This document shows, in pieces, positions 1-19,697 of a stretch of DNA of 64,000 nucleotides. The notes beneath the pieces are model-generated. The model was not told where the DNA came from. It made no database searches and saw only the letters and a list, made by a program, of their open reading frames with translations. Made by a program: the position numbers and the translations under genes. The DNA lies in contig JAKALT010000002.1 in the NCBI GenBank assembly GCA_021813125.1, forward strand, positions 11,424-75,423, given 5' to 3'. The stretch comes from a bacterium. Lineage in GTDB: Bacteria; Patescibacteriota; Microgenomatia; Curtissbacterales; GWA2-41-24. The stretch's first letter is position 1. Each line of letters opens with the position of its first letter.

Positions 1-1424
1 AAAATACTTGCATTCAACCTTACCTTTCGAGCCTCTTCAGCTTTTATATGTCTACCTGTGACTGTAAATGCAGTTCTGTCTCCTTGAGAAACAAGGCTTG
101 GATAAGGACAGTCTTCGTTGCACCCTTCGCTCTCTTTGACATCCATGCAACCAGTAACAAAATGATAATTTTGCTCTCCGATATTAGAAATATCTTGTGG
201 AGCAATAACCATTGATAAAAACTGTAAAATCTGCATAGAAGCAGTTGATAAACTAAAAGCAAACACATTTTCATTTCGTTTGATGGGATGTTCATCAGGC
301 AAAGAACTAATATAAGTTGGGTCATCTAAATAACCTTCCCGTTCCACCGATACCAACCCAGGATCATATTGCTTGAGACATTCTAAACATTTTCTTGTCG
401 GTCCAACGATATGAGCTTTCCAATCCGCCCCCTTTAGAATTCCTTTAGGGCTAACACTTACAGTTATCCCTCCATCTATAATTGGGATTAAGTGAGCATA
501 GGCAATAAAATTTAACACACTTCTAGCCCAAGGTCGGTCAACACAACTGAATATTACATCGCAATCAAGAGCTTCCCTAAAACCATCTTCTTCAACAACG
601 CTATATTCTAGTGACTCAGCTGTAAAATCGGTTGATGTTGCGTTTTTCCGAATCGCACGTGCCACAACATTCACTTTAGACTTACCTACATCTTCTCTGG
701 TCGCATGTAATAATCTGTCTAAGTTAACAAGTTCAACGCTATCAAAGTCAATCAATTTGATGTTTGCTATCCCCATTCTAGCGATTGACTCGGCTACCAT
801 AGACCCAACGCTGCCAACACCGATAATCCCGACTTGTATTCTTGCCAGATCAGCTTGTTTATTCTCTCCCCAAGCAGAAATAGTGCGCTCTAACTCTCTT
901 CTAAACTCTGGTTTAGGTAAAAGCTGTTCATTAAAAGTAATATTCAGCGCGTCACCTATAATTCTTACGGTTTTACACCAAAATCTTTCATATGTTCGAG
1001 GTTTAATTTTTTCCCAAAATCTTGCACTCCATGCCCCATCAGTACCAAGAGTTAACCCAACTAAGGGAAACCGAGTGGCCCCCCTTGTAGGTGCAGCATG
1101 GTTTAATTCTGCAAAAAAATCATCTCTGCTCATGTCTTGCCAGCCGGGACTAGTATGGCTATGCATAAACGCTAAACAGGCATTCTTTGAAGATGCTATA
1201 GAAAGAGCCCTTTCGAAGTAGCCAGGCAGAAAACCTGCGTTCTTATGTAGCACATGTTCTCCCTTCTCAGGAAGGATAAGTTCTCTAATAAGTGCAGTTT
1301 CCCTATTACGTCCGATGCTTGGATACCATATAGCAAAACACAAATTTTCTTGTCCGTCTTTCCTCAGCAAGTGTTCTAAAGCCTGTTTGTGAATGTCAGA
1401 AGGAATCGCTACGCTATAATTCAT
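1..1424 (-). CDS. JAB/MPN (JAMM) metalloprotease domain fused to E1-like ThiF/MoeB adenylyltransferase domain; C-terminus truncated by window edge
   Basis: Manual minus-strand translation from the ATG at 1424 is open to position 1 with no stop, so the track omits it because the stop lies outside the window. The N-terminus carries a JAMM-like E...HSH-x8-S-x2-D motif (QENLCFAIW ... MHSHTSPGWQDMSRDD). It is followed by a glycine-rich GIIGVGSVGS (GxGxxG) nucleotide-binding loop, IDFDSVELVNLDR, and two CxxC pairs (CLEC ... CNEDC) typical of MoeB/ThiF/E1 zinc sites. The start overlaps the upstream gene's stop (ATGA). Confidence 0.7.
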   Translation of the reverse strand, partial: MNYSVAIPSDIHKQALEHLLRKDGQENLCFAIWYPSIGRNRETALIRELILPEKGEHVLHKNAGFLPGYFERALSIASSKNACLAFMHSHTSPGWQDMSRDDFFAELNHAAPTRGATRFPLVGLTLGTDGAWSARFWEKIKPRTYERFWCKTVRIIGDALNITFNEQLLPKPEFRRELERTISAWGENKQADLARIQVGIIGVGSVGSMVAESIARMGIANIKLIDFDSVELVNLDRLLHATREDVGKSKVNVVARAIRKNATSTDFTAESLEYSVVEEDGFREALDCDVIFSCVDRPWARSVLNFIAYAHLIPIIDGGITVSVSPKGILKGADWKAHIVGPTRKCLECLKQYDPGLVSVEREGYLDDPTYISSLPDEHPIKRNENVFAFSLSTASMQILQFLSMVIAPQDISNIGEQNYHFVTGCMDVKESEGCNEDCPYPSLVSQGDRTAFTVTGRHIKAEEARKVRLNASI

Positions 1425-1789
1425 TGAGTTGAAAAAAGATGACGGACATATCTCATATAATCCCTAACAGCTCTTTTAGTTTTAGCCCATTCCCCGGGAG
1501 GGAAGGGTCTGCTCCAGTATTCCCAGTCGGGTCCAAAATTAGGACTCTCTGCAACTCTTGCGGGATGACTTGTCTCATTTGGATTAATTGGTAGGATTCT
1601 AGGCGACACATGAAGACCGCCTGGAGGGTTTAAATTCCAGTCTTGCGGAACATCAAGACCTAGTTTTATCGATTGGTCTTTAAATTTTCCATCTAACACA
1701 ACATAATCAAACACAATTTTATTATCGTTTAACACCTCAGCTTGGTAGCCTAGTGTATTAAGCTCATCGATAAATTCCTGTGTTGGCAT
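1421..1789 (-). CDS. UBC-fold E2-like protein with no cysteine (UEV-like, predicted catalytically inactive E2)
   Basis: 122 aa. An N-terminal helix, a PPGGLHV flap, then SHPAR...DWEYWSRP resembling the HPN...W-S-P core of E2/UBC. The sequence contains no Cys at all. It is translationally coupled in the operon: it starts 3 nt after the Ubl-like gene's stop and overlaps the downstream gene (ATGA). Confidence 0.4.
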   Translation of the reverse strand: MPTQEFIDELNTLGYQAEVLNDNKIVFDYVVLDGKFKDQSIKLGLDVPQDWNLNPPGGLHVSPRILPINPNETSHPARVAESPNFGPDWEYWSRPFPPGEWAKTKRAVRDYMRYVRHLFSTQ

Positions 1790-2053: not shown

Positions 2054-2092
2054 CCTCCTCTCTGTTCAATTTTGCAGTTGCTTTCAGTGAAT

Positions 2093-2130
2093 TTGACATT
2101 AAGGTTAATATACCATAAACTGTAAGGTAT
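2093..2130 (+). promoter_or_regulatory. candidate sigma70-like promoter (TTGACA-17-TAAACT) for the LexA-paralog operon, overlapped by inverted repeat ATACC-N11-GGTAT (2110-2130) as candidate operator
   Basis: TTGACA at 2093-2098, a 17-nt spacer, TAAACT at 2116-2121. The 5-bp inverted arms at 2110-2114 and 2126-2130 straddle the -10. This sits in the divergent intergenic region between the Ubl operon and the lexA-like gene. Confidence 0.3.
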
Positions 2131-2147
2131 CAACAATAGTTAAGTGT

Positions 2148-2750
2148 ATGCTTCCACCAAAGCAAAAAGCGGTTTACGATTTTATAAAAAAATTCCAAGT
2201 TGAACATGGGTTTGGGCCAACTCTAGATGAAATAGCGACCAAACTCAAAAAAACAGTTCCCACGATTCACCAACACGTGCAAGCACTGAGAGCTAAAGGC
2301 TTCCTAAAACAAGTTGGAGTTGTCGCCAGAAGTATATCAACATTTGATTCAAACGAGGAGGTGAGTGAGATTCCTCTTTTGGGCTATGTTTCAGCCGGTA
2401 GTGGTATTGAGAATATTGAAAATCCAGAAACCATAAAGGTTCAGAATTCTATGATTTCTCCCCAAGGGGCTCACTTCGCCCTGATCGTGAAAGGAACTTC
2501 AATGATAGAAGACGGGATATTTCCTGAAGATATAATCGTGGTAAAACGCCAAAACTTCGCTGATAATGGAGACGTCGTTGTGGCTTTGACAGGTTCTCAG
2601 GATAGAGCACTTGCCACTGTCAAGCGGTTTTACAACCAAGGCGATAAAATTGAACTAAGGCCCAAAAATCCAATACTGCCCTCAGTTTTTTACGATCCAG
2701 GCCAAATAGAAATTAGAGGAAAATTTGTTGGGTTAATTAGAAGAGCTTAA
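2148..2750 (+). CDS. LexA-family repressor paralog (wHTH plus S24 autopeptidase), first gene of the R-M operon
   Basis: The N-terminus has a LexA-type winged HTH (GPTLDEIATKLKK...HVQALRAKGFL). The C-terminus has S24 catalytic motifs: VKGTSM (Ser) and VVKRQ (Lys). It is separated from dcm by 18 bp. Confidence 0.8.
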   Translation: MLPPKQKAVYDFIKKFQVEHGFGPTLDEIATKLKKTVPTIHQHVQALRAKGFLKQVGVVARSISTFDSNEEVSEIPLLGYVSAGSGIENIENPETIKVQNSMISPQGAHFALIVKGTSMIEDGIFPEDIIVVKRQNFADNGDVVVALTGSQDRALATVKRFYNQGDKIELRPKNPILPSVFYDPGQIEIRGKFVGLIRRA

Positions 2751-2768
2751 CTTGTTATTATTATAACT

Positions 2769-3806
2769 ATGAAAAAGTATTCTGTCATTTCTTTGTTTAC
2801 TGGTTGCGGCGGCCTTGATTTGGGATTCGTTGGTGGCTTCACTTTTATGAACAAGCTTTATCCAAAAAGCAATTTTGAAATTATTTGGGCCAATGACATT
2901 GATAAACCCTCTTGTCAAACCTTTAGCAATTACTTCGACCATGACATTGTTTGCGGAGATATCACCCAAATTCTTGACGGTAACCCGAACTCATTTTTTG
3001 ATAAACCCTTGCCAGAACATGCCGACATAGTTATTGGTGGTTTTCCTTGCCAAGATTTTAGCCACGCTGGCAAAAGAAAAGGCTTTAACGCTAAAAGAGG
3101 TCTACTTTATCAGAGTATGTGTGAGGTTGTGAGACGCACAAAACCTATCTTGTTTGTCGCTGAAAATGTAAAGGGGCTGACGACCATGGATGATGGGAGA
3201 GCTTTAAAAACTATTATTAATGACTTTGAAAAGTTAGGATACAACGTTACCTACAAATTATTAACCGCCGCAGACTATGGAGTTCCTCAAATTAGAGAAA
3301 GAGTCATTATCGTTGGGACACGAAAAGAGAGTCTTCCCCTCTTTGAACACCCAAAGCCAATTCTAGATAAAAATGAGTGGGTTACACTTAAAGAGGCTAT
3401 TGGCGATTTAGAAAATGTTCCTGAAGGGGCGGTAGCTAACCATTATTGGTCTAAAGCTAAGATGTTTCCAGGAACGCAAGGGAACACTTTTGTTTCCCCT
3501 GATAAGCCTGGTCCAACGATGAGAACGGAGCATCATGGTAATATCGAATGGCATTGGAATAAAAAAAGAAGATTATCGGCCAGAGAAGCGGCAAGGATTC
3601 AATCTTTTCCTGACGATTTCGTTTTTTACCCTTCGACTTCATCAGCTTATAAACAAATTGGTAACGCCGTTCCACCGGTATTAGCCTGGCACGTCGCTAG
3701 AGCAATTGAAAAGTTTCTTAATAAAAACGTTGAAAAAAGTAAGGTTGAATCCAGCCCATCCCTTGATAGACTACTTGCCACTCAAACTGAAGCCAGAACT
3801 TTATGA
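2769..3806 (+). CDS. dcm: DNA (cytosine-5)-methyltransferase
   Basis: Motif I FTGCGGLDLGF, motif IV GFPCQDFS, motif VI ENVKGL, and the C-terminal QIGNAVP. Confidence 0.9.
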   Translation: MKKYSVISLFTGCGGLDLGFVGGFTFMNKLYPKSNFEIIWANDIDKPSCQTFSNYFDHDIVCGDITQILDGNPNSFFDKPLPEHADIVIGGFPCQDFSHAGKRKGFNAKRGLLYQSMCEVVRRTKPILFVAENVKGLTTMDDGRALKTIINDFEKLGYNVTYKLLTAADYGVPQIRERVIIVGTRKESLPLFEHPKPILDKNEWVTLKEAIGDLENVPEGAVANHYWSKAKMFPGTQGNTFVSPDKPGPTMRTEHHGNIEWHWNKKRRLSAREAARIQSFPDDFVFYPSTSSAYKQIGNAVPPVLAWHVARAIEKFLNKNVEKSKVESSPSLDRLLATQTEARTL

Positions 3807-4867
3807 TTGTTATAGATGATCCCAACATACTTCAAGAGAGCTTCTTACGGCTCTTGGAAAATACTAAAACTCACACTCTTGACGAACTTGTCGCTTTAGG
3901 AGGAAAAGCTAAAAAACTTAATGGTGATGAATTTGAAAATATCGTTTATAACAGTAGTTTAACTGCCTCAAAGAAAACTGAGTTTGAGGGTCACGTGATT
4001 CACACAGGTCCTCACGCTTTTCCTGATATCATAGCGAAAAAATACTTCGGGATTGAAGTAAAAATGACGACTGGTGATAAGTGGGTTTCCACCGGGAACA
4101 GTATTTTGGAAAGCACGAGAGTCGATGAGGTTGAGAAGATCTACATGTTTTTTGGCAAATTCGGTGGAGGCATAGATATTCGCTACAGGAATTATCAGGA
4201 TTGCTTATACGATATCGGTGTTACTCACTCACCTCGATACAAGATTGACATGGATTTAGTTGAGGGAAATTCAATTTTCGACAAAATGGGAGTTTCCTAC
4301 GAGGAGCTTCGAAAAGAAAATAACCCCATAAATAAGATTAAGGACTACTATCGGAATCAATTGAAAGATGGCGAAGAGTTGTGGTGGATTGACGCTCAGG
4401 TAGAAGACAAAACGGTAAGCCCCATCATTAAACCCTTTCGGTTATTGAGTCGAGAAGATCAAAAAAATTTCATTACCGAGGCAATGATTCTTTTTCCTGA
4501 GATATTCGGAAAGAGCGTCACTAAGTACGAAAGACCAGCGGCTTACCTTATCACAAAATATAACTCCGTGTCCTCCAGTTTAAGAGATATATTCACGGCT
4601 GGTGGCCAGGTAGAGCTATCCGTCATGGGTAAAAAAGTGATAGTCCCAAGGATATTCGCCCACTTGCTAGAAGAAGCTAAGAATATCCAGCGTAAAATCG
4701 CAGAGTTAAATGTGAATGATTTAGCGTACTACTGGAGAACGCAACGAATAGATGAGCCTCGTGTTGATCAGTGGAAACAGTTAGTCAATCAAGAAACGGG
4801 TGGACAACTTGATGGTTTAACTGCCTCCAGTATTTACGAATGGGGACTAAAAGAAGACGAAAAATAA
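3803..4867 (+). CDS. putative type II restriction endonuclease (PD-(D/E)xK) cognate to the C5-methyltransferase
   Basis: It overlaps the dcm stop (ATGA). FPDIIAKKYFGIEVKMT fits the PD...E-x-K nuclease motif. Its position lies between the MTase and vsr. Confidence 0.5.
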   Translation: MIVIDDPNILQESFLRLLENTKTHTLDELVALGGKAKKLNGDEFENIVYNSSLTASKKTEFEGHVIHTGPHAFPDIIAKKYFGIEVKMTTGDKWVSTGNSILESTRVDEVEKIYMFFGKFGGGIDIRYRNYQDCLYDIGVTHSPRYKIDMDLVEGNSIFDKMGVSYEELRKENNPINKIKDYYRNQLKDGEELWWIDAQVEDKTVSPIIKPFRLLSREDQKNFITEAMILFPEIFGKSVTKYERPAAYLITKYNSVSSSLRDIFTAGGQVELSVMGKKVIVPRIFAHLLEEAKNIQRKIAELNVNDLAYYWRTQRIDEPRVDQWKQLVNQETGGQLDGLTASSIYEWGLKEDEK

Positions 4868-5307
4868 AAAATTACGCCGGACGTGACTACAAAAAAGAAA
4901 GGGTGCCGGATAAACAATCTCCATTGTCTCGATCGGCTCAAATGTCCAAGATTCGGTCTAAAGACACTAAGTTTGAGGAAGATTTTATAAACACCTTGAA
5001 AGGCATATACGACAAGAACTTTCTAACCCACGTCCGCTCGGTCAAAGGTAACCCAGATATAGTTTTTAGTGAAAAGAAATTGTGCTTGTTTTTAGATAGC
5101 GACTTTTGGCATGGTTGGCAATATCCTAGGTGGAAACACTTACTGAAAGATGATTTTTGGAGAAGTAAAATCGAAAATAATAGGCAGAGGGACGTTAAAG
5201 TAACGAGATTTTTGAGAAAGAGTGGTTGGAGAGTTATAAGAGTCTGGGAACACCAGTTAAAAGACAAAGATGCTGTTCTAGCGAAAATACGACAATCGCT
5301 CCAATAA
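4840..5307 (+). CDS. vsr: very short patch repair endonuclease (Vsr); true start may be the internal ATG at 4942
   Basis: MSKIRSKDTKFE ... GNPDIVF ... CLFLDSDFWHGW ... WRSKIENNRQRD ... GWRVIRVWEHQL matches Vsr family signatures. The first 34 codons overlap the REase 3' end. Confidence 0.85.
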   Translation: MGTKRRRKIKNYAGRDYKKERVPDKQSPLSRSAQMSKIRSKDTKFEEDFINTLKGIYDKNFLTHVRSVKGNPDIVFSEKKLCLFLDSDFWHGWQYPRWKHLLKDDFWRSKIENNRQRDVKVTRFLRKSGWRVIRVWEHQLKDKDAVLAKIRQSLQ

Positions 5308-5338: not shown

Positions 5339-7036
5339 CTACTTTGATTTACTCTTTGAAGCTTGTTTATCATCTTCGGGAGGTATTTCGCCTATTTGTG
5401 CTACATGACCGCTTATGTTCAGCGTCAGAATTGTTTTGTTCTCGTTCTTTTTTACTCTTGGATATTTTTTGAGGAATTCTCGGTTCTCACTTAGCAGATA
5501 AATGGTTTCATAAACTGAGCCGTTTGTTCTCCTTAAATCTCTGCCATGTAATAATCCTTCTCTTCGTATTTTTTTAACGGAAGAGGGATGGATATTATGC
5601 CTTGAATTTAATTGCGAATGTGAAATCCACTCATCTTCGTTATCGAACAGGTGTTTCTTTAGTTGGGGTATAACTCCTTCCTTAATGTTGCGCCAACAAT
5701 CCGCGCAGCGGATACCCTCTAAGTTCCACCAGATTTCGTTGCCATAATGGCCTTCGTAGCAAATTCCACAGTTGTAATAGCCATCCGCATCAAGGAAAAA
5801 TCCATCCGGCTCTTTTTCCAGCCTTCTTTTTCTCACGGCATCAATTCCTTCCTGCTCACCTCGCATTTGCGCAAGCTTCACCCAACTGCTGGTACTGTAT
5901 TTCATTCGCTTTTCAGGGTCTAGCGCTATTGGTTGCTCTTTTTTCCCTTCGTAAAGCTTTAGCAAATCCTCTTCGCGTTCATATCCCTTTAGCCTTCCAG
6001 AAAGAACACCGAGTCGATAACTCACGTTATCCATAAGTCGCCAGTTAGTATTTCCTAACTCATTTTTAAGGAGCTTCTCAAGTGTACTTACACTTATGTT
6101 TTCTCTTCGTGAGGCTTCGGCATCCTGCAACGTAAACGGAACGAAAATAAATTGTCCTATTTCCGGAGCAGAAAAGGAAAGCTTCACATAGTTCGCCTTT
6201 CCCAATATATCCGTTAAGCGTTTTTCCAGCTCAACAATAGTTAACTTTTTAAGCCTGCTGACTTGCTGGTAAGCGCTGTTATCATATTTTTGCTTTGTTT
6301 CATCATGAACAAGTTTAGCGTATTCCATTGCCTCCAGTTCAAACAGGTACTTTTCTCCTTGCTCATCTGTTAAGCAAAAGGCGGTTCTGTACTTTTCCAA
6401 CAGCTCTTTATCTGCCTGTTCTTTTTGCTGATACTCTTTATGGTTCATTTCAAAGTCATCCACTTCAGTTTCGGTATAGCCACAGAACTTACATTTTCTC
6501 GTCCAGGTTATAATTTTTCCTTGCTTTGCTTTTGTATGCTTTACTTCAATTTCTCTGTTGCATTTAGGGCAAAGGTCGGGCTTCGATTGTCTTATTTGGC
6601 CGTTTTCGTAAACCCATTCTTGTTTTTTGCACTTGGTACAGCGAAAAAGAAATATGACCCGCATTGGCTGGTCGGTATAATCTTCAAGATGCTTAGTCTC
6701 GGTTGCTTGCATTATTGCTTTGCATGATGGGCAGTAGATACTTTGGGGTTCAACTGCACTGTCATACTTTTCCTGTTTAATTCTGTCTGCATCCATCCAT
6801 TTTTTAAGCGTTTCCTTCTTGCTTTTGTATTCCTGAGCCTGAGTTAACCATAATTGCCAATACATCAGTTTTGTCGTGTTACTGTATTTATCCTGCTTTG
6901 ATATTCCTTTAAACTCTTTACTGGTTAAGCCTTTCTGGTAAATGTCTTCGAACATTTCAACAATCTTGAGACACTCTTTTATCGTTAAAAGATCGTAACG
7001 GTCAATATAATTTTGCTCGTTTTGCAAATAATCCAT
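5339..7036 (-). CDS. large (565 aa) protein with multiple CxxC zinc-ribbon motifs, unknown function
   Basis: CPSCK...CTKCK and CPKCN...CKFCG zinc ribbons, a coiled-coil-like middle, and a C-terminal CGIC-YEGHYGNEIWWN-...-CADC cluster. It is convergent with vsr and divergent from the XRE regulator. Confidence 0.55.
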   Translation of the reverse strand: MDYLQNEQNYIDRYDLLTIKECLKIVEMFEDIYQKGLTSKEFKGISKQDKYSNTTKLMYWQLWLTQAQEYKSKKETLKKWMDADRIKQEKYDSAVEPQSIYCPSCKAIMQATETKHLEDYTDQPMRVIFLFRCTKCKKQEWVYENGQIRQSKPDLCPKCNREIEVKHTKAKQGKIITWTRKCKFCGYTETEVDDFEMNHKEYQQKEQADKELLEKYRTAFCLTDEQGEKYLFELEAMEYAKLVHDETKQKYDNSAYQQVSRLKKLTIVELEKRLTDILGKANYVKLSFSAPEIGQFIFVPFTLQDAEASRRENISVSTLEKLLKNELGNTNWRLMDNVSYRLGVLSGRLKGYEREEDLLKLYEGKKEQPIALDPEKRMKYSTSSWVKLAQMRGEQEGIDAVRKRRLEKEPDGFFLDADGYYNCGICYEGHYGNEIWWNLEGIRCADCWRNIKEGVIPQLKKHLFDNEDEWISHSQLNSRHNIHPSSVKKIRREGLLHGRDLRRTNGSVYETIYLLSENREFLKKYPRVKKNENKTILTLNISGHVAQIGEIPPEDDKQASKSKSK

Positions 7037-7130: not shown

Positions 7131-7337
7131 ATGGTATCTAAAAACAGACTAGGTGAAAATCTAAAAAAAGCCAGACAGAAGGCAGGGCTATCACAAGTAC
7201 AGTTGGCCAAAAAAGCAAAAATACACGCAAATTATTACGCGCGGGTCGAACGTGGCGAAGTTAACCCTTCGGTTGAAATAGTGGAAAATATAGCCAAAGC
7301 TCTGAATGTAAAATCATCAGAGATATTACCCTTTTAA
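7131..7337 (+). CDS. XRE-family helix-turn-helix transcriptional regulator
   Basis: 68 aa with GLSQVQLAKKAKIHANYYARVERGE, a typical Cro/C1 HTH. Confidence 0.8.
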   Translation: MVSKNRLGENLKKARQKAGLSQVQLAKKAKIHANYYARVERGEVNPSVEIVENIAKALNVKSSEILPF

Positions 7338-7483: not shown

Positions 7484-7556
7484 GCCCGCGTAGCTCAACG
7501 GATAGAGCACTCGCGTTCTAAGCGATTGGTTGGGGGTTCGAATCCCTCCGCGGGCG
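7484..7556 (+). tRNA. tRNA-Arg (anticodon TCT)
   Basis: Hand-folded cloverleaf: acceptor GCCCGCG/CGCGGGC, D-arm GCTC-AACGGATA-GAGC, anticodon loop GTTCTAA, T-arm GGGGG-TTCGAAT-CCCTC. No CCA is encoded. Confidence 0.7.
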
Positions 7557-7633
7557 CTTACTTTTTCTTGTAAACTTCTTTTACTAAAAACAGTGAATGA
7601 GTAAAATGATTTTTGGTATAATTTGGTATGTTT

Positions 7634-10797: not shown

Positions 10798-12075
10798 TTA
10801 GCTTACGCTTTTCAAGTTGGAGGTCAAGAAAGTTTTAGATCTTAAATGCCTATGGTAAGTAATAGCAAAACGGTGCGCTTCGTCCCGAATGGCTTGAGTT
10901 AACTGCCTTGCTGGACTTTCCTTTGGGAGGGCAATCGGTTGTATTTTCCCCGGAACGAATATTTGCTCGAGACGTTTTGCCAAAGACACAACTTGGATAT
11001 TATCATTTTTCGATTTAGATAGTGCTGAAAGGACTGCGTTTAGCTGTCCCCTGCCGCCGTCTATAATCATAAGGTCCGGCTCTGGCCATGTGTTTTTAAA
11101 GCGCCTTGCTACTACCTCCTTTAACATCAGGTAGTCATTGGGTTTTTGTGAGAACTTGATTTTAAAACGCCTGTATTCGGATTTTTCGGGAACCCCGTTT
11201 ATAAAAACAACCATAGAACCTGTTGCATGTTTTCCCTGCAAGTTAGATATGTCATAACACTCTATCCTTTTCGGAAGTTTTTTAAGAGTGATTTTCTCCT
11301 TTAAGTCTTTTAGTCTTTGCAGCGTTAAGTCGTCTACAAGCGTTGGTTTTTCCAAAAATTCTCTTGGGGTGTGGAAAATTGAGTTTAGATATTCCAGCTT
11401 TTGAATCTGGTTTTTGATTCGTGCTGCCTCTTCAAAATCCTGTTTTTTCGATGCAATTTGCATATCTGCCGTCAGGTCTTTTATCAAACTTTGACTTTTG
11501 CCTGAGAGAAGTTTTTTTATGTGGGCAACGGTTTTTTTATAGGCAATTGCCGATGTTTTCCCTTCATAAGGATATGGGCACAGCCCCAAGTGCACATAAA
11601 GACAAGGTTTTTTAGGGTTTTTATGCTGACAGTAAGGGAAAACTTTACGAATAAGTTTTAGTATGTCCTTCGTAACTTTTGCAGACGGGAAAGGGCCTTT
11701 TATAAAAACTCCCCTTTGGGGCGTTACTTTTCTTGTTAATGTAACAAGAGGAATTTCCCCTTCTATTTTGATATATATTGGACTCTTGTCGTCTTTTGCA
11801 ATTACATTATAAAAGGGCTTGTAGGTTCTTATTAGCTCAGACTCGAGCATTAAAGCTTCAAACTCGGAAAAGACCTTGATTGTTTTTACATCTGCAATAT
11901 TTTTGACCAGCATGTCAGTTTTAGGGCCGAGATTTTTATTTGTAAAATAGGAAGCTACCCTTTTTTTAATGGAAACCGATTTTCCAATGTAGATGACTTT
12001 TTTGTCTTTTGAAATAAATTGGTAAATTCCCGGGCCGTTTGGGAGGTTACTAAGCTTTTCCTTGAATGATTTCAC
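10798..12075 (-). CDS. uvrC: excinuclease ABC subunit C (short form, 425 aa)
   Basis: N-terminal GIY-YIG (GPGIYQF...IYIGKS), and DEAHRFAITYHR in the C-terminal endonuclease domain. It is shorter than typical UvrC and the HhH tail appears to be absent. Confidence 0.8.
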   Translation of the reverse strand: MKSFKEKLSNLPNGPGIYQFISKDKKVIYIGKSVSIKKRVASYFTNKNLGPKTDMLVKNIADVKTIKVFSEFEALMLESELIRTYKPFYNVIAKDDKSPIYIKIEGEIPLVTLTRKVTPQRGVFIKGPFPSAKVTKDILKLIRKVFPYCQHKNPKKPCLYVHLGLCPYPYEGKTSAIAYKKTVAHIKKLLSGKSQSLIKDLTADMQIASKKQDFEEAARIKNQIQKLEYLNSIFHTPREFLEKPTLVDDLTLQRLKDLKEKITLKKLPKRIECYDISNLQGKHATGSMVVFINGVPEKSEYRRFKIKFSQKPNDYLMLKEVVARRFKNTWPEPDLMIIDGGRGQLNAVLSALSKSKNDNIQVVSLAKRLEQIFVPGKIQPIALPKESPARQLTQAIRDEAHRFAITYHRHLRSKTFLTSNLKSVS

Positions 12076-12099
12076 AGAAGTTGAATTGTAGCAAATATC

Positions 12100-13980
12100 T
12101 CAAGTTTGCGCCCGATTATGTTTTTTGTGATGTCTATTGTAGAATCGCAAACCTAAATAGAGTAATACTATGACAACGGGAAAAGATGCTAAAAACGGTA
12201 GGGTAAAGGCGATTTCGTATATTGGTTTTATTAAAATAGGTTTTGAGATTTGAGCGTCTGCAAAACCTAGAATAAGATTGTCTTTTTCCTGATTTAGGTT
12301 GCTTTTGGTTTCAATGTCAAATTTAAAATTCCTGTTTGCAAAAGGCGGAAGCACGGCAACCAGAAGAGGATTTGGGGACGTTATAGAAAGTAGTTTTGAA
12401 GAAAGTGAAAGTTTTTGGTTGATAATCGAAGTTGAGCCTGAATTGACTAAGTTTGCCGTAACTGTTGTGGGTATCTGGGAGTAAATTGCTTCGGGTGTTA
12501 ATAGCTGCAATTGCGCTGTTGCAGTCGGTGTCGGTAGGTTTTCGGCAAAGGAAACATCAACACTTTTTTGATTCAGCCTTGTTTTGTCTTTAAACGCGCC
12601 TGCAGGTAGCGGGTCTGTTGAGGAAATACCTCTTTGAATAAAAGTTATATGGTTGAAGTCCAGTTTGTTGAAGTAATCTAATCCCCCTGATGTTGAACCC
12701 CAAGTAGGGTCTACCTGAACCCACCCCAGGTTGTCGTCCCAATATTCCGGCCATGCGTGAAGTACGTCCCCGCTGTTTAAAGTTAGTGAGAGAGGCCTTA
12801 GGCGCTCGTTTTGAGTGTAGGCATAGCCTTCCACTTCTCTTGCGGGAATTTTGGCTGCCCTGGCTATTGCAATAAACAAATCCGTAAATTCCATGCATAT
12901 TGAATCTTTGGGCGTTTGAATTGCTGCTGCAGCCCCTTTTCTTTCTATTGTCTGCTGCGTTAGGCGTTCGGTACTGTAAGAGAGGTATGTTGAAACAAAA
13001 TTATATATCTGTTCTGGGGTTTTAAGCTCGTTAGCCTTATCTTTTATGAAGCCGTTGTCCGTTTCCCAATATCTTTGGGGTTGGATATATTGGTTTTTTT
13101 GGTCTTGTGTCAGTTTCGTGTAAATGTTTCTGAAAGGCTTGCTGAAGACTTCAACATAACCCTGGGCGGTTATATTTAATTTTTGCTTAGGCGACAACTT
13201 ATACTTGGCGACAAAATTTCCCTCGTCGTCCACAGTTACATCCTCGGGTTTCGGGTCCATTTTTTCGAGTACAATTTTTTGATAATTGTTATCAGGCGGA
13301 AGCGTGATTGTAGACGTTTGGCTAGTCACGTTATTGTTCTGGAGAAAATAATTAAGCTTAAAGGCGAATACCTGTTTTTCCCCGAAAGACATTGAAATAC
13401 CAGATTGCAGAAGCTGGTCTTTTGAAAAGGTAAATTCCTGGGTTTGCGATTTTTGCTGGCTTGTCACGGGCTTTGGGGTAGTGAAGGCGACGGGTCCAAA
13501 AATCCTGGGTATGCTAAGTGTTGCACTGTAGCTTCCCATATCCTGCGAAGAAGCAAGCCTTGGTATAGAAATTTCCCAAATTTGCCCAGATTTGGTTGCG
13601 AGTTCGTCGGAAGAATAAGACAGGCTCCAGTTTAGTTTTTTGCCCTCCCCTATTACGCGCTGGTTGAATTTGACAGTTATTGTTGTGACGTTATTGTCGA
13701 AGTTTACTTTGGTATCAAGATTACCCGTGTCGTCTGCAGCTTTTACATTGGTGACTTTTGTTGATCCTATTTTTAGTTCAAACTTGTCAGCGTAATAATT
13801 TGCGGTTTTGTTGGTAAGTGTTATGTTTTGGTTAACATCGGTTTTACCATTTGCGGAAACGGAATAATTTACCTGATAATCGGTTTGAAATTCACCCTCG
13901 GCTTTTGCGACTCTTGGAAAGCAAAAGGTAAGGAATACAAAAAGAGATGCCAGAAGAAAAAATCGGGCAAGCGATTTCAC
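12100..13980 (-). CDS. secreted transglutaminase-like domain protein with signal peptide and C-terminal TM
   Basis: Signal peptide MKSLARFFLLASLFVFLT...AKA. Transglutaminase core Cys/His/Asp: ICMEFTDLF ... HAWPEYW ... VDPTW. Confidence 0.7.
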   Translation of the reverse strand: MKSLARFFLLASLFVFLTFCFPRVAKAEGEFQTDYQVNYSVSANGKTDVNQNITLTNKTANYYADKFELKIGSTKVTNVKAADDTGNLDTKVNFDNNVTTITVKFNQRVIGEGKKLNWSLSYSSDELATKSGQIWEISIPRLASSQDMGSYSATLSIPRIFGPVAFTTPKPVTSQQKSQTQEFTFSKDQLLQSGISMSFGEKQVFAFKLNYFLQNNNVTSQTSTITLPPDNNYQKIVLEKMDPKPEDVTVDDEGNFVAKYKLSPKQKLNITAQGYVEVFSKPFRNIYTKLTQDQKNQYIQPQRYWETDNGFIKDKANELKTPEQIYNFVSTYLSYSTERLTQQTIERKGAAAAIQTPKDSICMEFTDLFIAIARAAKIPAREVEGYAYTQNERLRPLSLTLNSGDVLHAWPEYWDDNLGWVQVDPTWGSTSGGLDYFNKLDFNHITFIQRGISSTDPLPAGAFKDKTRLNQKSVDVSFAENLPTPTATAQLQLLTPEAIYSQIPTTVTANLVNSGSTSIINQKLSLSSKLLSITSPNPLLVAVLPPFANRNFKFDIETKSNLNQEKDNLILGFADAQISKPILIKPIYEIAFTLPFLASFPVVIVLLYLGLRFYNRHHKKHNRAQT

Positions 13981-14015
13981 AGTGTGTTAAGTATCTGTTG
14001 TCGGCCCTTGGGCTG

Positions 14016-16901
14016 TCAAGACATGTGCTTTTTCAAAAATTGACCCGTGTAAGACTTATTGATTTTTGTTAAATCTTCGGGTGTTGCCGTTGCTATCACG
14101 TGACCGCCAGCGTTGCCGCCTTCAGGTCCAAGGTCAATTATCCAGTCCGCGTTGGCTATTATGTCCATGTTGTGCTCAATAACAATTACGGTGTTACCTG
14201 TTGATACCAGTCTATCTAAAATTGTTAGTAACCTTTCAATATCTGCAAAATGAAGGCCGGTTGTGGGCTCGTCCAAGATGTAAATTGTTTTGCCGGTCGC
14301 CTTTTTTGAAAGCTCTGTTGCAAGTTTTACACGTTGTGCCTCACCCCCGGAAAGCGTCGGTGCTGGCTGTCCAAGGTGTATATACGAAAGGCCTACATCA
14401 TTTATAGTTTCCAGCTTTTGTTTAATTTGCGGAATATTTTCAAAAAACTCCAGGGCTGTTTCTACAGTCATTTGCAGTACCTCTGAAATATTTTTGCCCT
14501 TATAGTGAACCTCTAATGCTTCTTCGTTGTACCTTTTTCCTGCACAAACTTCGCAATCAACGTAAACATCCGGCAAAAATTGCATCTCTATTTTTACCTG
14601 ACCTTCTCCTTCACAAGCTTCGCAGCGTCCGCCTTTGACGTTAAACGAAAATCGTCCGGGGTTATAACCACGAATTCTGGCGTCTGTTGTTTGAGAGAAT
14701 AATTCACGGATGTGTGTAAAAGCACCGGTGTACGTTGCAGGGTTTGAACGTGGCGTTCTGCCGATAGGCGACTGGTCTATAAGAATTACTTTATCAACAT
14801 TTTCCAAGCCTCGAAGTGATTTGTAAGCTCCAGGTTTATCTTTTGAACTGTAAAGCTCTGAGGCGATTGCGTTATATAAAACGTCGTGAATTAGTGTTGA
14901 TTTCCCCGACCCCGAAACACCAGTTATACAAATTAGGTTTCCCAAGGGAAGAGTAATGTCGATATCTTTAAGATTGTGTTCTCTGGCGCCAATAAGCTCA
15001 AGAGTTTGGCCGTTTAGGGAAACGCTGCGCATTTTTGGAAGCTTGATTTTCTTTTTGCCGGACAGATATTTTCCGGTAAGTGAGTTTGGGTTTTTAGTTA
15101 TTGATACAGGCGAACCTTGCGCAATAATCTTACCTCCATGTTCACCTGCACCAGGGCCGAAATCCAAAATCTCATCTGAGGCGAACATCATTTCGCTGTC
15201 GTGCTCAACTACTACAACAGTATTTTCCAGATCGCGAAGTTTTTTCAGTGTTGATATGAGTCGCCGATTGTCTCTTTGGTGAAGACCAATTGACGGTTCG
15301 TCCAAAACATATAACACACCCGAGAGGCCAGAGCCTATTTGTGAAGCAAGCCGTATGCGCTGCGCCTCGCCTCCCGCCAAGGTAACCGCGGACCTGGCGA
15401 TTGTCAAATAGTCCAGGCCAACGTCTACAAGAAATTTTGTCCGAGTCAACAGTTCTTTTAAAATAGGCTTAGCGATTAAAGCTTCTCTTTCTGAAAGCAG
15501 GGGCGGGTCATTATTTTCTAATTTTTGAAGCCATAAAAAGAGGTCTTGTATGCTTTGGATTGAGATATCTGCAATTGACCTTTTTTCAATTGTGACAGAT
15601 AGCGCTTCGGGTTTTAACCTGGTTCCCAGGCAAGTTTCGCAGTCTTCCTGCCGCATAAATCGTTCAATTTCCCGCCTGACGAAATCCGATTCCGTTTGTG
15701 AATATTTAAGCTCTATATTTTTTAATACACCTTCAAAGTTGCTATCCCAGGAAACAATCTTGCCAAACCTGTTCGGTCCTTTAACTCTGTATAACTTGTC
15801 GTCTGTTCCGTTTAGTATCTTGTCTTGTGAATTTTGGTCAAGATTGCTAAAGGGTATATTTAAGGAAACGCCATTTTCTTTGCAAACTGTTTCAAGAACC
15901 CTCCAAGACCAGGAATCGCTACCAACAATTCTGGCCCAAGGCAGGATTGCGCCTTCTGCTATTGTGAGATTGGGATTAATAACAAGCTTGGGGTCTACTT
16001 TTTTAATCACGCCAAGGCCATTACATTTAGGGCATGCCCCATGAGGAGAGTTAAAAGAAAAAGACCTTGGTTCTATTTCCGGAAGAGATATGTTGTCAAC
16101 CGGGCACGTAAATTTTTCGGAAAAAAGATGATCTTTTAGCTCCTTAGGATACTTGGGAATTTCGAAGCTTTTATCCAGAATCTCTGAGGCAATTAGTGAA
16201 CCTTCAGAAAGTTTTAATGCCTGTTCTGTGGATTGGCTAAGCCTTTGTTTTTCTGCCGGAATTACAAGTCTGTCTATTACAACGTCAATTGTGTGTTTGT
16301 TCGTTTTAATAAGCGTAAAATCTTCGTCAATTTCGCGTATTTGCCCGTCTATCCTTGCTTCACGGTAGCCCTTTTTTAAAAGGTCCCTAAACAACTGGGT
16401 AAATTCACCTTTTCGATCTTTTACAACTGGAGCAAGGAGAAGTATTTTAAGATTCTTGGTGTTTGTTTGAGTTGGGAGTTTTTGAATTTCGTCGACAATT
16501 TGAGAAGCAGATTGGTGCGAAATTTCCCGCCCGCAGATTGGGCAATGCGGGTGACCGATGCGGGCAAAAAGTAGTCTTAGATAATCATAAATCTCCGTCA
16601 CCGTACCAACTGTTGAACGTGGGTTGTGTGACGTTGACTTTTGATCTATGGAGATTGCCGGCGAAAGGCCTTCTATTGAATCAACATCCGGTTTGTCCAT
16701 TACACCCAAGAATTGACGTGCGTATGATGCGAGCGATTCAACATACCTCCGTTGGCCTTCGGCATAGATTGTGTCAAAGGCAAGAGATGATTTCCCCGAA
16801 CCGGAAATTCCGGTGAAGACGATTAGTTTATTTTTAGGGATCTCAACGCTTAAGTTTTTGAGGTTGTTTTCCCTCGCGCCTTTTACAATTATTTTATCCA
16901 T
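14016..16901 (-). CDS. uvrA: excinuclease ABC subunit A
   Basis: Two ABC ATPase modules ([16 protein letters not shown]), zinc-finger CxxC pairs, and the LSGGEAQR signatures. Confidence 0.95.
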
Positions 16902-17001
16902 TAGTAAATTTTTATACCCGAATAAATACCGAAACTAAATTACTATATGAGGTAAAATTTTAACACCTTTGGCAATAATTTGGAAGCTTCCAATTGGGGC
17001 A

Positions 17002-18996: not shown

Positions 18997-19037
18997 ATCA
19001 ATCGTACATTATATCTTAAATCTAATAGATATGGCTC

Positions 19038-19067
19038 TTGACAACTTCGGGTTTTATTTGGTATATA
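19038..19067 (+). promoter_or_regulatory. candidate promoter TTGACA-18-TATATA for lexA, in the uvrB-lexA divergent region
   Basis: TTGACA at 19038-19043 and TATATA at about 19062-19067. The start codon is at 19077. Confidence 0.35.
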
Positions 19068-19076
19068 TAGTGTAAC

Positions 19077-19697
19077 ATGAGTTTGGTTTTATATAAACGA
19101 CAAAAGCAGATACTGGATTTTCTCAATGATTACATTGAAAAATACGGCCATGCACCTACTTTGGTAGAAATTGCAAAAAAGTTAGGAGTAAAATCTCTCG
19201 CGACAGTTCATGAGCATCTACAAACGCTGGAAAAGAAAGGACTGATAAAGAAATCGGGCGGTATTTCCAGGAGCATAGAACTTATTGATCAAAAAATAGG
19301 GAAAGTCGTAAGAGGTATAGAGTTACCGCTTTCGGGGTTTATAGCCGCAGGAGCACCAATTGAACCTTATACTGACCCTAACGCTACTTTTGCGGTATCC
19401 GCAAACATGGTTTCTCCTAACAAAAAATCATATGTGTTGCAGGTCAAAGGGGAATCAATGGTTGACGACGGTATTTTGGACGGTGATTTTGTGGTTATAG
19501 AAGAAACAAACCAGGCAAATAACGGAGATATTGTAGTTGCAATGATCGAAAACGGCATCGTCACACTAAAACGATTTTTCAAGGAAAAGGACAGGGTTAG
19601 GTTACAACCGGCAAATACAACAATGCAGCCAATTTTTGCAAAAAGTGTGACTATTCAGGGCAAGTGTGTTGCGGTAATCAGGCGTTACCAGAGTTAA
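19077..19697 (+). CDS. lexA: LexA repressor (canonical copy, divergent from uvrB)
   Basis: LexA wHTH (APTLVEIAKKLGVKSLATVHEHLQTLEKKGLI). S24 motifs VKGESM and VTLKRF. Confidence 0.9.
   Translation: MSLVLYKRQKQILDFLNDYIEKYGHAPTLVEIAKKLGVKSLATVHEHLQTLEKKGLIKKSGGISRSIELIDQKIGKVVRGIELPLSGFIAAGAPIEPYTDPNATFAVSANMVSPNKKSYVLQVKGESMVDDGILDGDFVVIEETNQANNGDIVVAMIENGIVTLKRFFKEKDRVRLQPANTTMQPIFAKSVTIQGKCVAVIRRYQS

Follow-up and report, generated by a model that had tools for sequence, protein, structure and literature searches.

The window, i.e. the whole stretch of 64,000 nucleotides that was analysed, comprises near its first position two sets of genes that are read away from each other, with a gene for a second LexA protein (in the following, the paralog) at the head of the plus-strand set. 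The genes and their determined properties are as follows:

1..1424, minus strand: ThiF/E1-type adenylyltransferase, 487 aa, 3' gene of the divergent operon
1421..1789, minus strand: E2-like protein, 122 aa
1793..2044, minus strand: Ubl-like small protein, first gene of the divergent operon, 83 aa (ATG 2044) or 86 aa (TTG 2053), ending in ...FTG-ETPVS
2148..2750, plus strand: LexA paralog, 200 aa, LexA-type winged HTH (recognition helix PTIHQHVQALRAKG) and S24 autopeptidase (Ala83-Gly84, Ser118, Lys159)
2769..3806, plus strand: C5 cytosine DNA methyltransferase (Dcm type), 345 aa (PF00145 264.8 bits; TIGR00675 255.8; PADLOC MTase_II 339.8)
3803..4867, plus strand: Type II restriction endonuclease (REase), PD-(D/E)XK, EcoRV-like fold, 354 aa
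4840..5307, plus strand: Vsr very-short-patch T:G mismatch endonuclease, 155 aa (PF03852 50.9 bits; TIGR00632 98.0 compared to a cut-off of 97.85; PADLOC Vsr)

The paralog had been described in the sequence-only reading as a full LexA-like protein with the S24 Ser/Lys dyad, and the profile searches confirmed this description. Residues 2-56 matched LexA_DNA_bind (PF01726) with 34.4 bits compared to a cut-off of 23.7, the C-terminal domain matched Peptidase_S24 (PF00717) with 91.6 bits, likewise above the Pfam cut-off, and the lexA equivalog model TIGR00498 gave 151.7 bits (cut-off 110.95). Ala83-Gly84, Ser118 and Lys159 align with the residues of the host LexA. They are unchanged in 22 relatives as well as in 37 proteins of a sister clade, which shares just 38-44% identity with the paralog clade; this invariance is partly built in, since the loci, chosen by LexA homology alone, were fetched using the peptide patterns PTIHQH and SM[IV][DE]DGI. 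Compared to the host LexA, the paralog showed 38% identity and a recognition helix of PTIHQH instead of ATVHEH. Judged by its domains and its identity values, the paralog is a genuine full-length LexA of a lineage separate from the host LexA, and it is a member of a conserved Microgenomates (CPR) clade with 58-72% identity inside the clade.

All four plus-strand genes were found where they had been placed before. The gap between the lexA paralog and dcm amounts to 18 bp, and a sequence scan revealed no terminator-like site between them, which supports the earlier claim that the paralog heads the operon of methyltransferase, endonuclease and Vsr. Dcm and REase overlap by 4 nt and REase and Vsr by 28 nt, and from this spacing the paralog and the R-M genes are almost certainly co-transcribed. 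The C5 methyltransferase, the PD-(D/E)XK endonuclease and Vsr form one unit of the Type II R-M plus Vsr kind. The same three-gene synteny is conserved in another CPR genome (L155), where it is headed by a 73-aa HTH protein. Since that small protein stands at the head of the same cassette, the paralog takes the controller slot of the Dcm-REase-Vsr unit.

The divergent genes had been read as an Ubl/E2/JAB-E1 operon, of which the E1 part proved solid, while the other assignments are weaker. The E1 adenylyltransferase of a Bil-like system (Multiubiquitin / Prok-E2_E / JAB / E1) was found by ThiF (PF00899 in the public gene call; NCBIfam ThiF/E1) and by the PADLOC E1-E2 models with up to 64.7 bits; the 3' end of its gene lies about 39 nt beyond the window edge. 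In its N-terminal region, a JAB domain is visible just as a JAB-like H-x-H...S-x-x-D motif, and neither Pfam nor BLAST detects one. The E2-like protein reached 21.9 bits with Prok-E2_E (E=1.6e-4), under the curated cut-off of 25, and the Ubl-like protein matched Multi_ubiq below threshold (E=0.11, 13.2 bits), covering profile positions 7-65 of 69, with no BLAST similarity to the multiubiquitin of L087. The window E1 clusters with the E1 of L087 and L088, whose partners exceed the cut-offs of Multi_ubiq and Prok-E2_E; both cut-offs are also passed in L015, another locus with a related E1.

The region between the divergent operons had been given as 2054-2147 and was corrected to 2045-2147 (103 bp), since ATG 2044 is the start of the Ubl-like gene in the public gene call. 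It contains the following elements:

2093..2121, plus strand: promoter-like site of the paralog/R-M operon, TTGACA-17-TAAACT (consensus scan, 10/12 matches)
2099..2107: upstream half-site-like element TTAAGGTTA, consensus TTAAGGTA, right after the -35 (conserved column block in the cross-locus alignment)
2105..2133, minus strand: candidate promoter of the divergent operon, TTGATA (2133..2128)-17-TATTAA (2110..2105), read from the sequence
2111..2129: candidate operator, 19-bp palindrome TACCATAAACTGTAAGGTA (TACCWTA-N5-TAWGGTA)

The palindrome overlaps the -10 of the plus-strand promoter and lies inside the spacer of the candidate minus-strand promoter. It is the single match in the 64-kb window, and matches occurred in 0 of 100 shuffles. 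Each related locus contains one copy, 29-51 nt ahead of the paralog ATG, scoring 22-34 bits in the 21 loci with the standard 11-nt spacing, and no further site above 20 bits was found in 275 kb. The TTGACA/TTGCAA and TAnnnT hexamers of the plus-strand promoter are kept in register in about 30 related loci, and the corresponding minus-strand hexamers (TTGCAA/TTGCAC and TATnTT) are conserved in related loci as well. The CC and GG columns of the palindrome are invariant and fall outside every promoter hexamer; their conservation is therefore not explained by promoter sequence. The minus-strand promoter at 2105..2133 is a candidate which the consensus scan of the window did not pick up, and it is weak here, since its -10 TATTAA lacks the final T. 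Altogether, one conserved palindrome within a back-to-back promoter region strengthens the earlier suggestion that the paralog may also regulate the divergent operon.

The host LexA, which lies outside the module, served as a comparator:

17002-18996: uvrB, divergent from the host lexA
19077..19697, plus strand: canonical host LexA, 206 aa (TIGR00498 200.8 bits), divergent from uvrB

A second, canonical lexA adjoining uvrB was thus present in the window as reported before, and both uvrB and uvrA were confirmed; recA was not found within the 64 kb. Host LexA orthologues of other Microgenomates show 52-62% identity, with the divergent uvrB kept in six of them, while no uvrB was found near the paralog at any paralog locus. 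The promoter element of the host lexA, TTYG-N7-TTYG, is unlike the palindrome of the paralog.

A comparison of the related loci showed which neighbours are constant. For the upstream side, 28 paralog loci offered enough flank, and in 26 of them a divergently transcribed operon lies directly upstream, 23-111 bp away. These operons are mostly recognisable defence systems, namely CBASS types I and III, Bil-like/multiubiquitin, Thoeris and TIR-caspase. In 9 of 26 related loci, a small DUF2188 protein is the first divergent gene, whichever defence system comes next; this window has no DUF2188 gene. The downstream slot is variable and holds R-M genes, an XRE gene, a ParB-methylase/terminase block, or nothing. 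Co-directional genes downstream are often R-M, with gaps of -8 to 50 bp, and comprise type III, MvaI/BcnI, BsuBI/PstI, EcoO109I-like and BsaWI-like + Vsr systems. R-M genes follow the LexA-like gene in at least 9 of about 26 own-clade loci, and in the sister clade, which has an identical recognition helix, Type II methyltransferase genes are headed by it in about 33 of 38 loci. Hence, the proposed comparison with related genomes did reveal a recurrence of LexA-like genes upstream of R-M systems. Sister-clade loci have the LexA-like gene at the head of the methylase only, the REase having its own small XRE gene, and the AGGTA unit of the upstream half-site-like element is repeated in their promoters. 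Since the most constant partner of the paralog is the divergent non-R-M operon, the framing of the paralog as a specific R-M controller was rejected; the earlier interpretation is partly supported and too narrow.

Two further genes follow the R-M operon in the window:

5339..7036, minus strand: Cys-rich (zinc-ribbon-like) protein, 565 aa, probably further island cargo
7131..7337, plus strand: XRE-type HTH protein, 68 aa, similar to C proteins and CapH (HTH_3 62.8 bits; PADLOC Control_protein 53.6, capH 48.5)

The 565-aa protein showed no Pfam, NCBIfam or PADLOC match. Homologues are encoded in L086 (50% identity), as the fourth gene of a Thoeris-type divergent operon, and in L077 (41% identity), adjoining an XRE gene. 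The XRE protein of the window shares 63% identity with that of L072, where the gene lies 60 nt downstream of the paralog, and 52-53% with those of L009, L011 and L012; further homologues are located 4-6 kb downstream in L073, L077 and L080. By this homology, the XRE gene recurs as a neighbour downstream of the paralog, and the R-M operon and the 565-aa gene of the window look like cargo inserted between the two.

Among known systems, LexA of E. coli and B. subtilis (TIGR00498) shares with the paralog the architecture, the length, the Ala-Gly site and the Ser/Lys dyad, and the paralog probably likewise autoregulates via a palindrome at its own promoter. It differs in the recognition helix, in a single-copy operator (TACC-N11-GGTA), and in its position in a variable island between defence operons. 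No repair-gene regulon is visible, the palindrome occurring once in 64 kb, not at the uvrC-uvrA-uvrB-lexA cluster, and once per related locus. The genes for CapW, CapH/CapP and CapK/CapS lie upstream of defence operons and encode repressors that respond to DNA damage; the papers describing them mention neither LexA nor S24 (10.1101/2022.04.27.489752, PMC11662680, PMC13373217). Like CapW/BrxR (wHTH-WYL), CapH-CapP (HTH + metallopeptidase) and CapK-CapS, the paralog is located directly upstream of diverse anti-phage operons including CBASS, often divergently, and by analogy it would share the logic of a repression relieved by damage. Nevertheless, it belongs to an unrelated family and comprises neither WYL-WCX, nor an XRE HTH with M78-type peptidase, nor kinase and repressor domains. 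While the Cap regulators depend on ssDNA binding, a partner protease or a kinase, the paralog as a single polypeptide would sense damage by RecA-stimulated self-cleavage.

Similar to the genes of R-M controller (C) proteins and RptR, the paralog gene opens an R-M transcription unit and has a palindrome at its own promoter, although this palindrome, overlapping the -10, is unrelated to known C-boxes. Control of the LexA type does not appear in the R-M reviews or in the RptR paper. C proteins are small XRE HTH proteins of about 70-100 aa, whereas the paralog comprises 200 aa with a winged HTH and a protease domain, a potential damage input and a second, non-R-M operon facing it. Pfam gave no HTH_3 match for it, and PADLOC, which has no model for this type, returned no regulator model and no Control_protein match. 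Based on the length, the LexA_DNA_bind and S24 domains and these missing matches, a typical C protein was ruled out.

S24 repressors and LexA-controlled operons are also known from mobile elements, for example lambda CI with rexAB, SetR of SXT, and the SaPI packaging operon under host LexA. The layout of the paralog resembles cI-rexAB, where an autocleaving S24 repressor sits at a pair of divergent promoters and shares its transcript with defence genes, and terminase-containing operons stand behind the LexA-type repressor in four related loci. Most paralog loci, however, are flanked on both sides by defence genes and not by lytic or transfer genes. UmuDAb-DdrR of Acinetobacter consists of a LexA-like S24 repressor and a small gene divergent from it (PMC7273328). 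In its position, this small gene parallels the DUF2188 first gene of the related loci; UmuDAb targets error-prone polymerase genes, unlike the proposed defence cargo of the paralog.

Taken together, we consider it probable (about 0.6) that the paralog is a local, autoregulated LexA-type repressor, likely cleaved with the help of RecA, which controls swappable defence cargo on both sides; we thus propose a local rather than a global SOS regulator. This reading builds on the domains, the residue conservation, the single-copy palindrome with its place relative to the promoter-like hexamers, and the recurrent genomic association, from which we infer that the paralog binds DNA, represses both promoters and is cleaved with RecA stimulation, and that it is co-transcribed with the R-M genes. 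A paralog dimer would bind the palindrome in the compact promoter region and cover the -10 of its own promoter, which would also drive Dcm, REase and Vsr, and the same palindrome would serve the opposing promoter from inside the spacer ahead of the Ubl-like/E2-like/E1 operon. In unstressed cells, both operons would be kept low and self-limited by the repressor. DNA damage or phage replication would lead to RecA-ssDNA filaments, which would stimulate self-cleavage at Ala83-Gly84 via Ser118/Lys159 and thereby derepress both operons. Repressor and operator would form a portable cassette, with the flanking genes as exchangeable defence cargo.

It is conceivable, though unlikely, that a prophage, satellite or integrative element encodes the paralog mainly as its own immunity or maintenance repressor, like lambda CI or SetR, with cleavage leading to element induction and the defence genes being passengers. 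Such an origin would fit the downstream genes of L016, L017, L073 and L086 (an unknown gene, a ParB-N6/N4 methylase, a TerS-like HTH and a large terminase), the serine recombinase and HerA/DUF87 ATPase near L001, the recombinases, integrases or conjugation-type ATPases near L072, L073 and L074, and the end of the window island at tRNA-Arg/tRNA-His. Yet a search for att-like repeats found none, the window island contains no phage structural or replication genes, and L003 and L007 are surrounded by housekeeping genes and have no element gene within 8 kb. Each locus has one operator within +/-8-10 kb, so that no wider element regulon is visible. An identity with phage CI or ICE SetR itself was ruled out by the LexA-type N-terminal domain (CI and SetR are XRE type), by the lack of a paralog relative among 2.9 million viral contigs, and by element genes near some loci only.

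Less probable still, the paralog could be an R-M controller analogue that does not cleave itself, with S24 serving dimerisation only; the methylase (and REase) would then be made in a burst when a new host is entered, before steady autorepression sets in, with no damage input. The small HTH protein in the otherwise identical L155 cassette speaks for this reading, as does the sister-clade arrangement of methylase and REase, which resembles the repression of M promoters by controller proteins as known from Esp1396I-type systems. Against this, two clades of low mutual identity have kept the Ala-Gly site, Ser and Lys without exception, as would hardly be expected unless cleavage were under selection, and the most constant partner is not an R-M system. 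That the paralog is a second global SOS repressor, a duplicated lexA with diverged motif placed beside defence genes by chance, we regard as highly improbable: it passes the lexA equivalog model, and other phyla are known to have duplicated lexA genes with diverged motifs (PMC8565304), but the palindrome is absent from the remaining 62 kb of the window, the uvrC-uvrA-uvrB-lexA cluster included. Furthermore, the flanks change at every locus while the cassette stays constant, which is the pattern of a mobile module and not of a chromosomal regulator.

For the preferred reading of a local repressor of defence cargo, two points have to be kept in mind. In a survey of E. coli, defence expression was negatively correlated with recA transcription (10.64898/2025.12.14.694197), and SOS induction of defence is therefore no general rule. 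Since ParB-methylase/terminase genes, integrases and recombinases occur near some loci, the cassette may act mainly as an element repressor and only secondarily as a defence regulator. In the searchable literature, we found no description of such a LexA-type switch flanked by defence genes. The recurrence of the repressor and its site beside many anti-phage systems in related uncultured bacteria suggests a portable, damage-triggered immunity switch.

By sequence criteria, the second LexA of the window (the paralog) belongs to the LexA family. It reaches 151.7 bits on the NCBIfam lexA equivalog model (cut-off 110.95), and both LexA domains as well as Ser118 and Lys159 are present, which bears out the sequence-only reading of a full LexA-like protein with the S24 dyad. 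All ORFs named in that reading were found in the window.

Features discussed (window positions)
2148-2750, + strand: LexA paralog, 200 aa; PF01726 (LexA-type winged helix) 34.4 bits, PF00717 (S24 peptidase) 91.6 bits
2769-3806, + strand: C5 methyltransferase (dcm), 264.8 bits, starting 18 bp past the paralog gene
3803-4867, + strand: Type II restriction endonuclease (REase), 4-nt overlap with dcm; PADLOC REase_II 141.4 bits
4840-5307, + strand: Vsr; profile matches including PADLOC
5339-7036, - strand: Cys-rich protein (zinc-ribbon), 565 aa, without match in Pfam, NCBIfam and PADLOC
7131-7337, + strand: XRE protein, 68 aa; PADLOC Control_protein and capH models matched
2111-2129: candidate operator, palindrome TACCWTA-N5-TAWGGTA, from cross-locus comparison
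First gene of the divergent operon, - strand: Ubl-like protein, 83-86 aa; Multi_ubiq E=0.11 only
Second gene, - strand: E2-like protein, 122 aa; Prok-E2_E 21.9 bits, below the cut-off of 25
Third gene, - strand, extending past the window start: ThiF/E1 protein, 487 aa; profile matches
19077-19697, + strand: host LexA, 200.8 bits; divergent from uvrB, near uvrA and uvrC

A protein search with the paralog yielded at least 120 clusters of 58-72% identity, all of about 200 aa and with the same two domains, whose named sources are Microgenomates, Gottesmanbacteria or Patescibacteria. The identity to the host LexA amounts to 38%. In 22 aligned members of the paralog clade, Ala83-Gly84, Ser118 and Lys159 showed no variation, and the recognition helix reads PTIHQHVQxLRxKG, whereas that of the host LexA reads ATVHEHLQTLEKKG. 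Judged from these comparisons, the paralog represents a conserved lineage of its own; PADLOC has no model for it.

Related loci were fetched solely by paralog homology (exact-protein look-ups, one genome scan and one metagenome scan), resulting in 31 distinct paralog proteins. Upstream DNA was long enough in 28 loci, and in 26 of them the next gene is divergently oriented, at a distance of 23-111 bp. The downstream co-directional genes follow with gaps of -8 to 50 bp. The comparison also answers positively whether LexA-like genes recur upstream of R-M genes in related genomes.

Flanking genes of the paralog in the window and in the fetched loci (L-numbers)
Divergent, patatin + CD-NTase: L003, L080
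Divergent, CD-NTase + Cap15: L007
Divergent, SMODS + HORMA + AAA + CARF effector: L009, L011, L012
Divergent, SMODS/AGS_C sets: L073, L074, L077
Divergent, Bil with BilD: L005
Divergent, multiubiquitin + Prok-E2_E + E1: window, L015, L087
Divergent, ThsB/ThsA-Macro Thoeris: L086
Divergent, TIR + caspase-like C14: L019, L071, L072
Divergent, small HNH-like/GIY-YIG pairs: L014, L084, L095
Downstream R-M, Dcm-REase-Vsr operon: window
Downstream R-M, type III: L003
Downstream R-M, N6 methylase + BsuBI/PstI REase + GmrSD: L005
Downstream R-M, N6/N4 methylase + MvaI/BcnI: L014, L084, L087, L095
Downstream R-M, Dcm + BsaWI-like REase + Vsr: L082
Downstream R-M, EcoO109I-like REase + Dcm: L019
Downstream, XRE gene: L009, L011, L012, L072
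Downstream, gene without assignment + ParB-methylase + TerS-like gene + terminase: L016, L017, L073, L086
Downstream, nothing: L007, L074, L078

A DUF2188 protein of 75-80 aa is the first divergent gene in 9 of 26 loci (L007, L009, L011, L012, L017, L071, L073, L077 and L097), independent of the defence system after it (CBASS types, TIR-caspase, SMODS + UvrD); the window has no such gene. DUF2188 may be part of the regulatory module rather than of the defence systems, possibly as a co-regulator.

For the window itself, both the MTase-REase-Vsr gene set and the 18 bp between paralog and dcm were found as the sequence-only reading had placed them. Since neither a terminator-like nor a + strand promoter-like site was detected in this gap, co-transcription of paralog and dcm is likely. 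Pfam and NCBIfam searches with the ORF at 3803-4867 gave no match and a PDB sequence search nothing significant; it was identified only by fold search and PADLOC. Its assignment as Type II REase is based on the fold search, on the PADLOC match, on a PD-(D/E)XK motif (D75...E85-x-K87) invariant in 24 homologues and on the Dcm-X-Vsr gene order, which recurs in a Moranbacteria contig. In the Moranbacteria locus L155:2754-6592, a 73-aa HTH_17/MerR-like gene heads the Dcm-REase-Vsr cassette, behind which come a 111-aa gene and then a gene for a Peptidase_M78 (ImmA/IrrE-like); this combination of HTH and Peptidase_M78 genes is reminiscent of CapH/CapP.

The XRE protein of the window is 63% identical to the one directly after the paralog in L072. 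XRE genes directly adjoin the paralog in L072, L009, L011 and L012, whereas in the window, L073, L077 and L080 the distance to the XRE gene downstream is 4-6 kb. Since XRE is kept as a downstream neighbour, near or far, the paralog and XRE look like backbone genes between which the R-M operon and the 565-aa gene were inserted as cargo, which suggests that the paralog-XRE interval is an insertion hotspot. Homologues of the 565-aa protein occur in L086, fourth in a Thoeris-type operon (50% identity), and in L077, adjoining the XRE gene (41% identity); the protein is a candidate new defence-island gene.

The Ubl/E2/JAB-E1 operon proposed for the opposite strand was recovered in part. The E1 (ThiF) protein was identified, while the Ubl and E2 matches remained below threshold and JAB was assigned by an H-x-H...S-x-x-D motif only; the JAB region of the E1 fusion gave no Pfam match and no BLAST similarity to the JAB-motif protein of a related locus. 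BLAST likewise showed no similarity between the Ubl of the window and the L087 multiubiquitin. Three genes precede the window start (L001:2757-7384, on the window's own contig): one for a large serine recombinase (555 aa), one of 133 aa, and one for a DUF87/HerA-like ATPase (836 aa) with PADLOC mad8/HerA matches. ARAGORN predicted a tRNA-Gly at L001:2840-2913, which overlaps the recombinase ORF at its 3' end, and the island may extend over about 12.4 kb from this tRNA to a tRNA-Arg (window 7484-7557). A search of L001 for att-type direct repeats marking the island ends gave only short chance-like pairs.

All paralog upstream regions comprise one architecture, cTTGACa-TTAAGGTA-N5-TACCwTAaAcTaTtAGGTA-gtGCAAnAg. 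In the window, a half-site-like element (TTAAGGTTA, 2099-2107) directly follows the -35 of the paralog promoter. The palindrome is imperfect there and was revealed only through cross-locus comparison; a repeat finder reported no inverted repeat in the intergenic region. It has a single match in 64 kb, even with 2 mismatches allowed, and with 0 mismatches none of 100 shuffles gave a match. On a weight matrix derived from 19 loci, the promoter site scores 22-34 bits wherever a locus has the standard 11-nt spacing, and over 275 kb of related loci no further site exceeded 20 bits. On the + strand, the hexamers are TTGACA-17-TAAACT, the -10 falling within the palindrome. Across loci, the minus strand shows a conserved TTGCAA-like hexamer, 17 nt and TATnTT, with the palindrome in the spacer; the window version of this candidate opposing promoter, TTGATA-17-TATTAA, is weak. 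Since the columns of highest information (CC and GG) lie outside every promoter hexamer, the conserved palindrome argues for a protein-binding site. An E. coli-like SOS box, CTGTTCAATTTTGCAG at 2063-2078 (CTGT-N8-(G)CAG-like, resembling CTGT-N8-ACAG), where the 5' leader of the Ubl-like gene presumably lies, is probably a chance occurrence, because it is conserved in no related locus.

The second lexA was confirmed next to uvrB. It closes an excision-repair cluster at 10798-19697 (uvrC, transglutaminase-core protein, uvrA, uvrB, then divergent lexA). Host-type orthologues in other Microgenomates showed 52-62% identity, and a divergent uvrB is kept in 6 of 9 fetched host-type loci; uvrB lies near no paralog locus. 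The host promoter (TTGACA 19038-19043, TATATA 19062-19067) holds TTCG-N7-TTTG (19046-19060) in its spacer. This TTYG-N7-TTYG direct repeat recurs in about 5 of 7 orthologous canonical-lexA promoters examined, differs from the paralog palindrome, and may be the SOS box of these Microgenomates. Housekeeping genes make up the remainder of the window (enolase, iPGM, PPDK, DnaE), and no recA was found in the window. The stretch belongs to a metagenomic contig of 112 kb from a Microgenomates-type CPR bacterium.

A sister clade (L105-L154) comprises 50 further metagenome loci with 38 distinct proteins of about 202 aa, which share 38-44% identity and the PTIHQH helix with the paralog. Since these loci were retrieved by the peptide patterns PTIHQH and SM[IV][DE]DGI, the invariance of both motifs is partly by construction; Ala-Gly and Lys lie outside the patterns, and 37 sequences show no variation at Ala-Gly, Ser or Lys. 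About 33 of the 38 have a Type II methyltransferase gene, in most cases dcm, as their immediate downstream neighbour (gap about 27 bp); after it there is typically an REase gene in convergent orientation, then an XRE gene of 73 aa (LexA-like -> Type II methylase <- REase <- XRE). CD-NTase/Cap15 or SMODS genes lie upstream of several loci. The promoters show AGGTA units as direct repeats around the TATAAT box and a conserved upstream GGGGATAAC element; the repeats and the common helix fit a shared helix-half-site recognition.

Altogether, the best-supported reading is that the paralog acts as a local, autoregulated LexA-type repressor of both flanking operons. It would occupy one operator within the back-to-back promoter region, thereby silencing both operons, and would probably be inactivated by RecA-stimulated self-cleavage. 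The R-M operon would then show an expression burst on entering a naive cell, autorepression afterwards, and induction on DNA damage from phage replication or self-restriction. In the sister clade, the methylase alone would respond, speculatively as a safety feedback.

The terminase-linked loci and nearby recombinases could also point to a mobile-element repressor with the defence genes as passengers. This is unlikely, since no relative was found on the viral contigs searched, each locus has only one operator, chromosomal settings without element genes occur, and the DNA-binding domain is LexA-type, not XRE-type. The paralog holds the position of an R-M controller protein, yet is not one; that it works as a non-cleaving analogue of such a controller is less probable still, considering that the cleavage residues are invariant across two diverged clades. 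A second global SOS repressor is very improbable, as the operator is private and single-copy and the distribution follows a mobile-module pattern; control of a repair regulon, which defines a functional LexA, was found for the paralog neither in the 64 kb nor in 275 kb of related loci.

Few regulator families are known that keep toxic immune systems off until they are required (CapW/BrxR, CapH-CapP, CapK-CapS, RptR and C proteins), and the defence repertoire of CPR bacteria has been poorly charted. As a local repressor, the paralog is proposed to work like the damage-responsive CapW/BrxR, CapH-CapP and CapK-CapS, but has no domains in common with them. Reviews describe R-M systems under C proteins or the methylase itself, and a recent preprint places some defence genes within global LexA regulons, with nothing further on the point. 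The CapH/CapP, CapK/CapS, BrxR and RptR papers and an R-M review make no mention of LexA-type control, and in the literature searched on LexA/S24 with defence systems, CPR or R-M no description of such a cassette was found; the published CPR LexA box lies outside this comparison.

With a probability of roughly 0.4, we propose an undescribed, portable, self-cleaving LexA-type immune switch in CPR bacteria, which by a private AGGTA-based operator and a bidirectional promoter would tie CBASS, Bil-like ubiquitination, Thoeris, TIR-caspase and Type II/III R-M systems to RecA activation, and in the sister clade would put the R-M methyltransferase under the same control. Both the operator and the protein are small and clearly delimited, so that the idea is directly testable. 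The cassette is a marker of defence islands in CPR bacteria, and its recurrent neighbours, the 565-aa zinc-ribbon protein and DUF2188, are candidate new defence or regulatory genes. If true, RecA activation would be tied to immunity in the most direct way possible, through a LexA-type repressor dedicated to it, and R-M systems would come under a damage signal, while in the sister clade self-restriction damage would feed back to more methylation.
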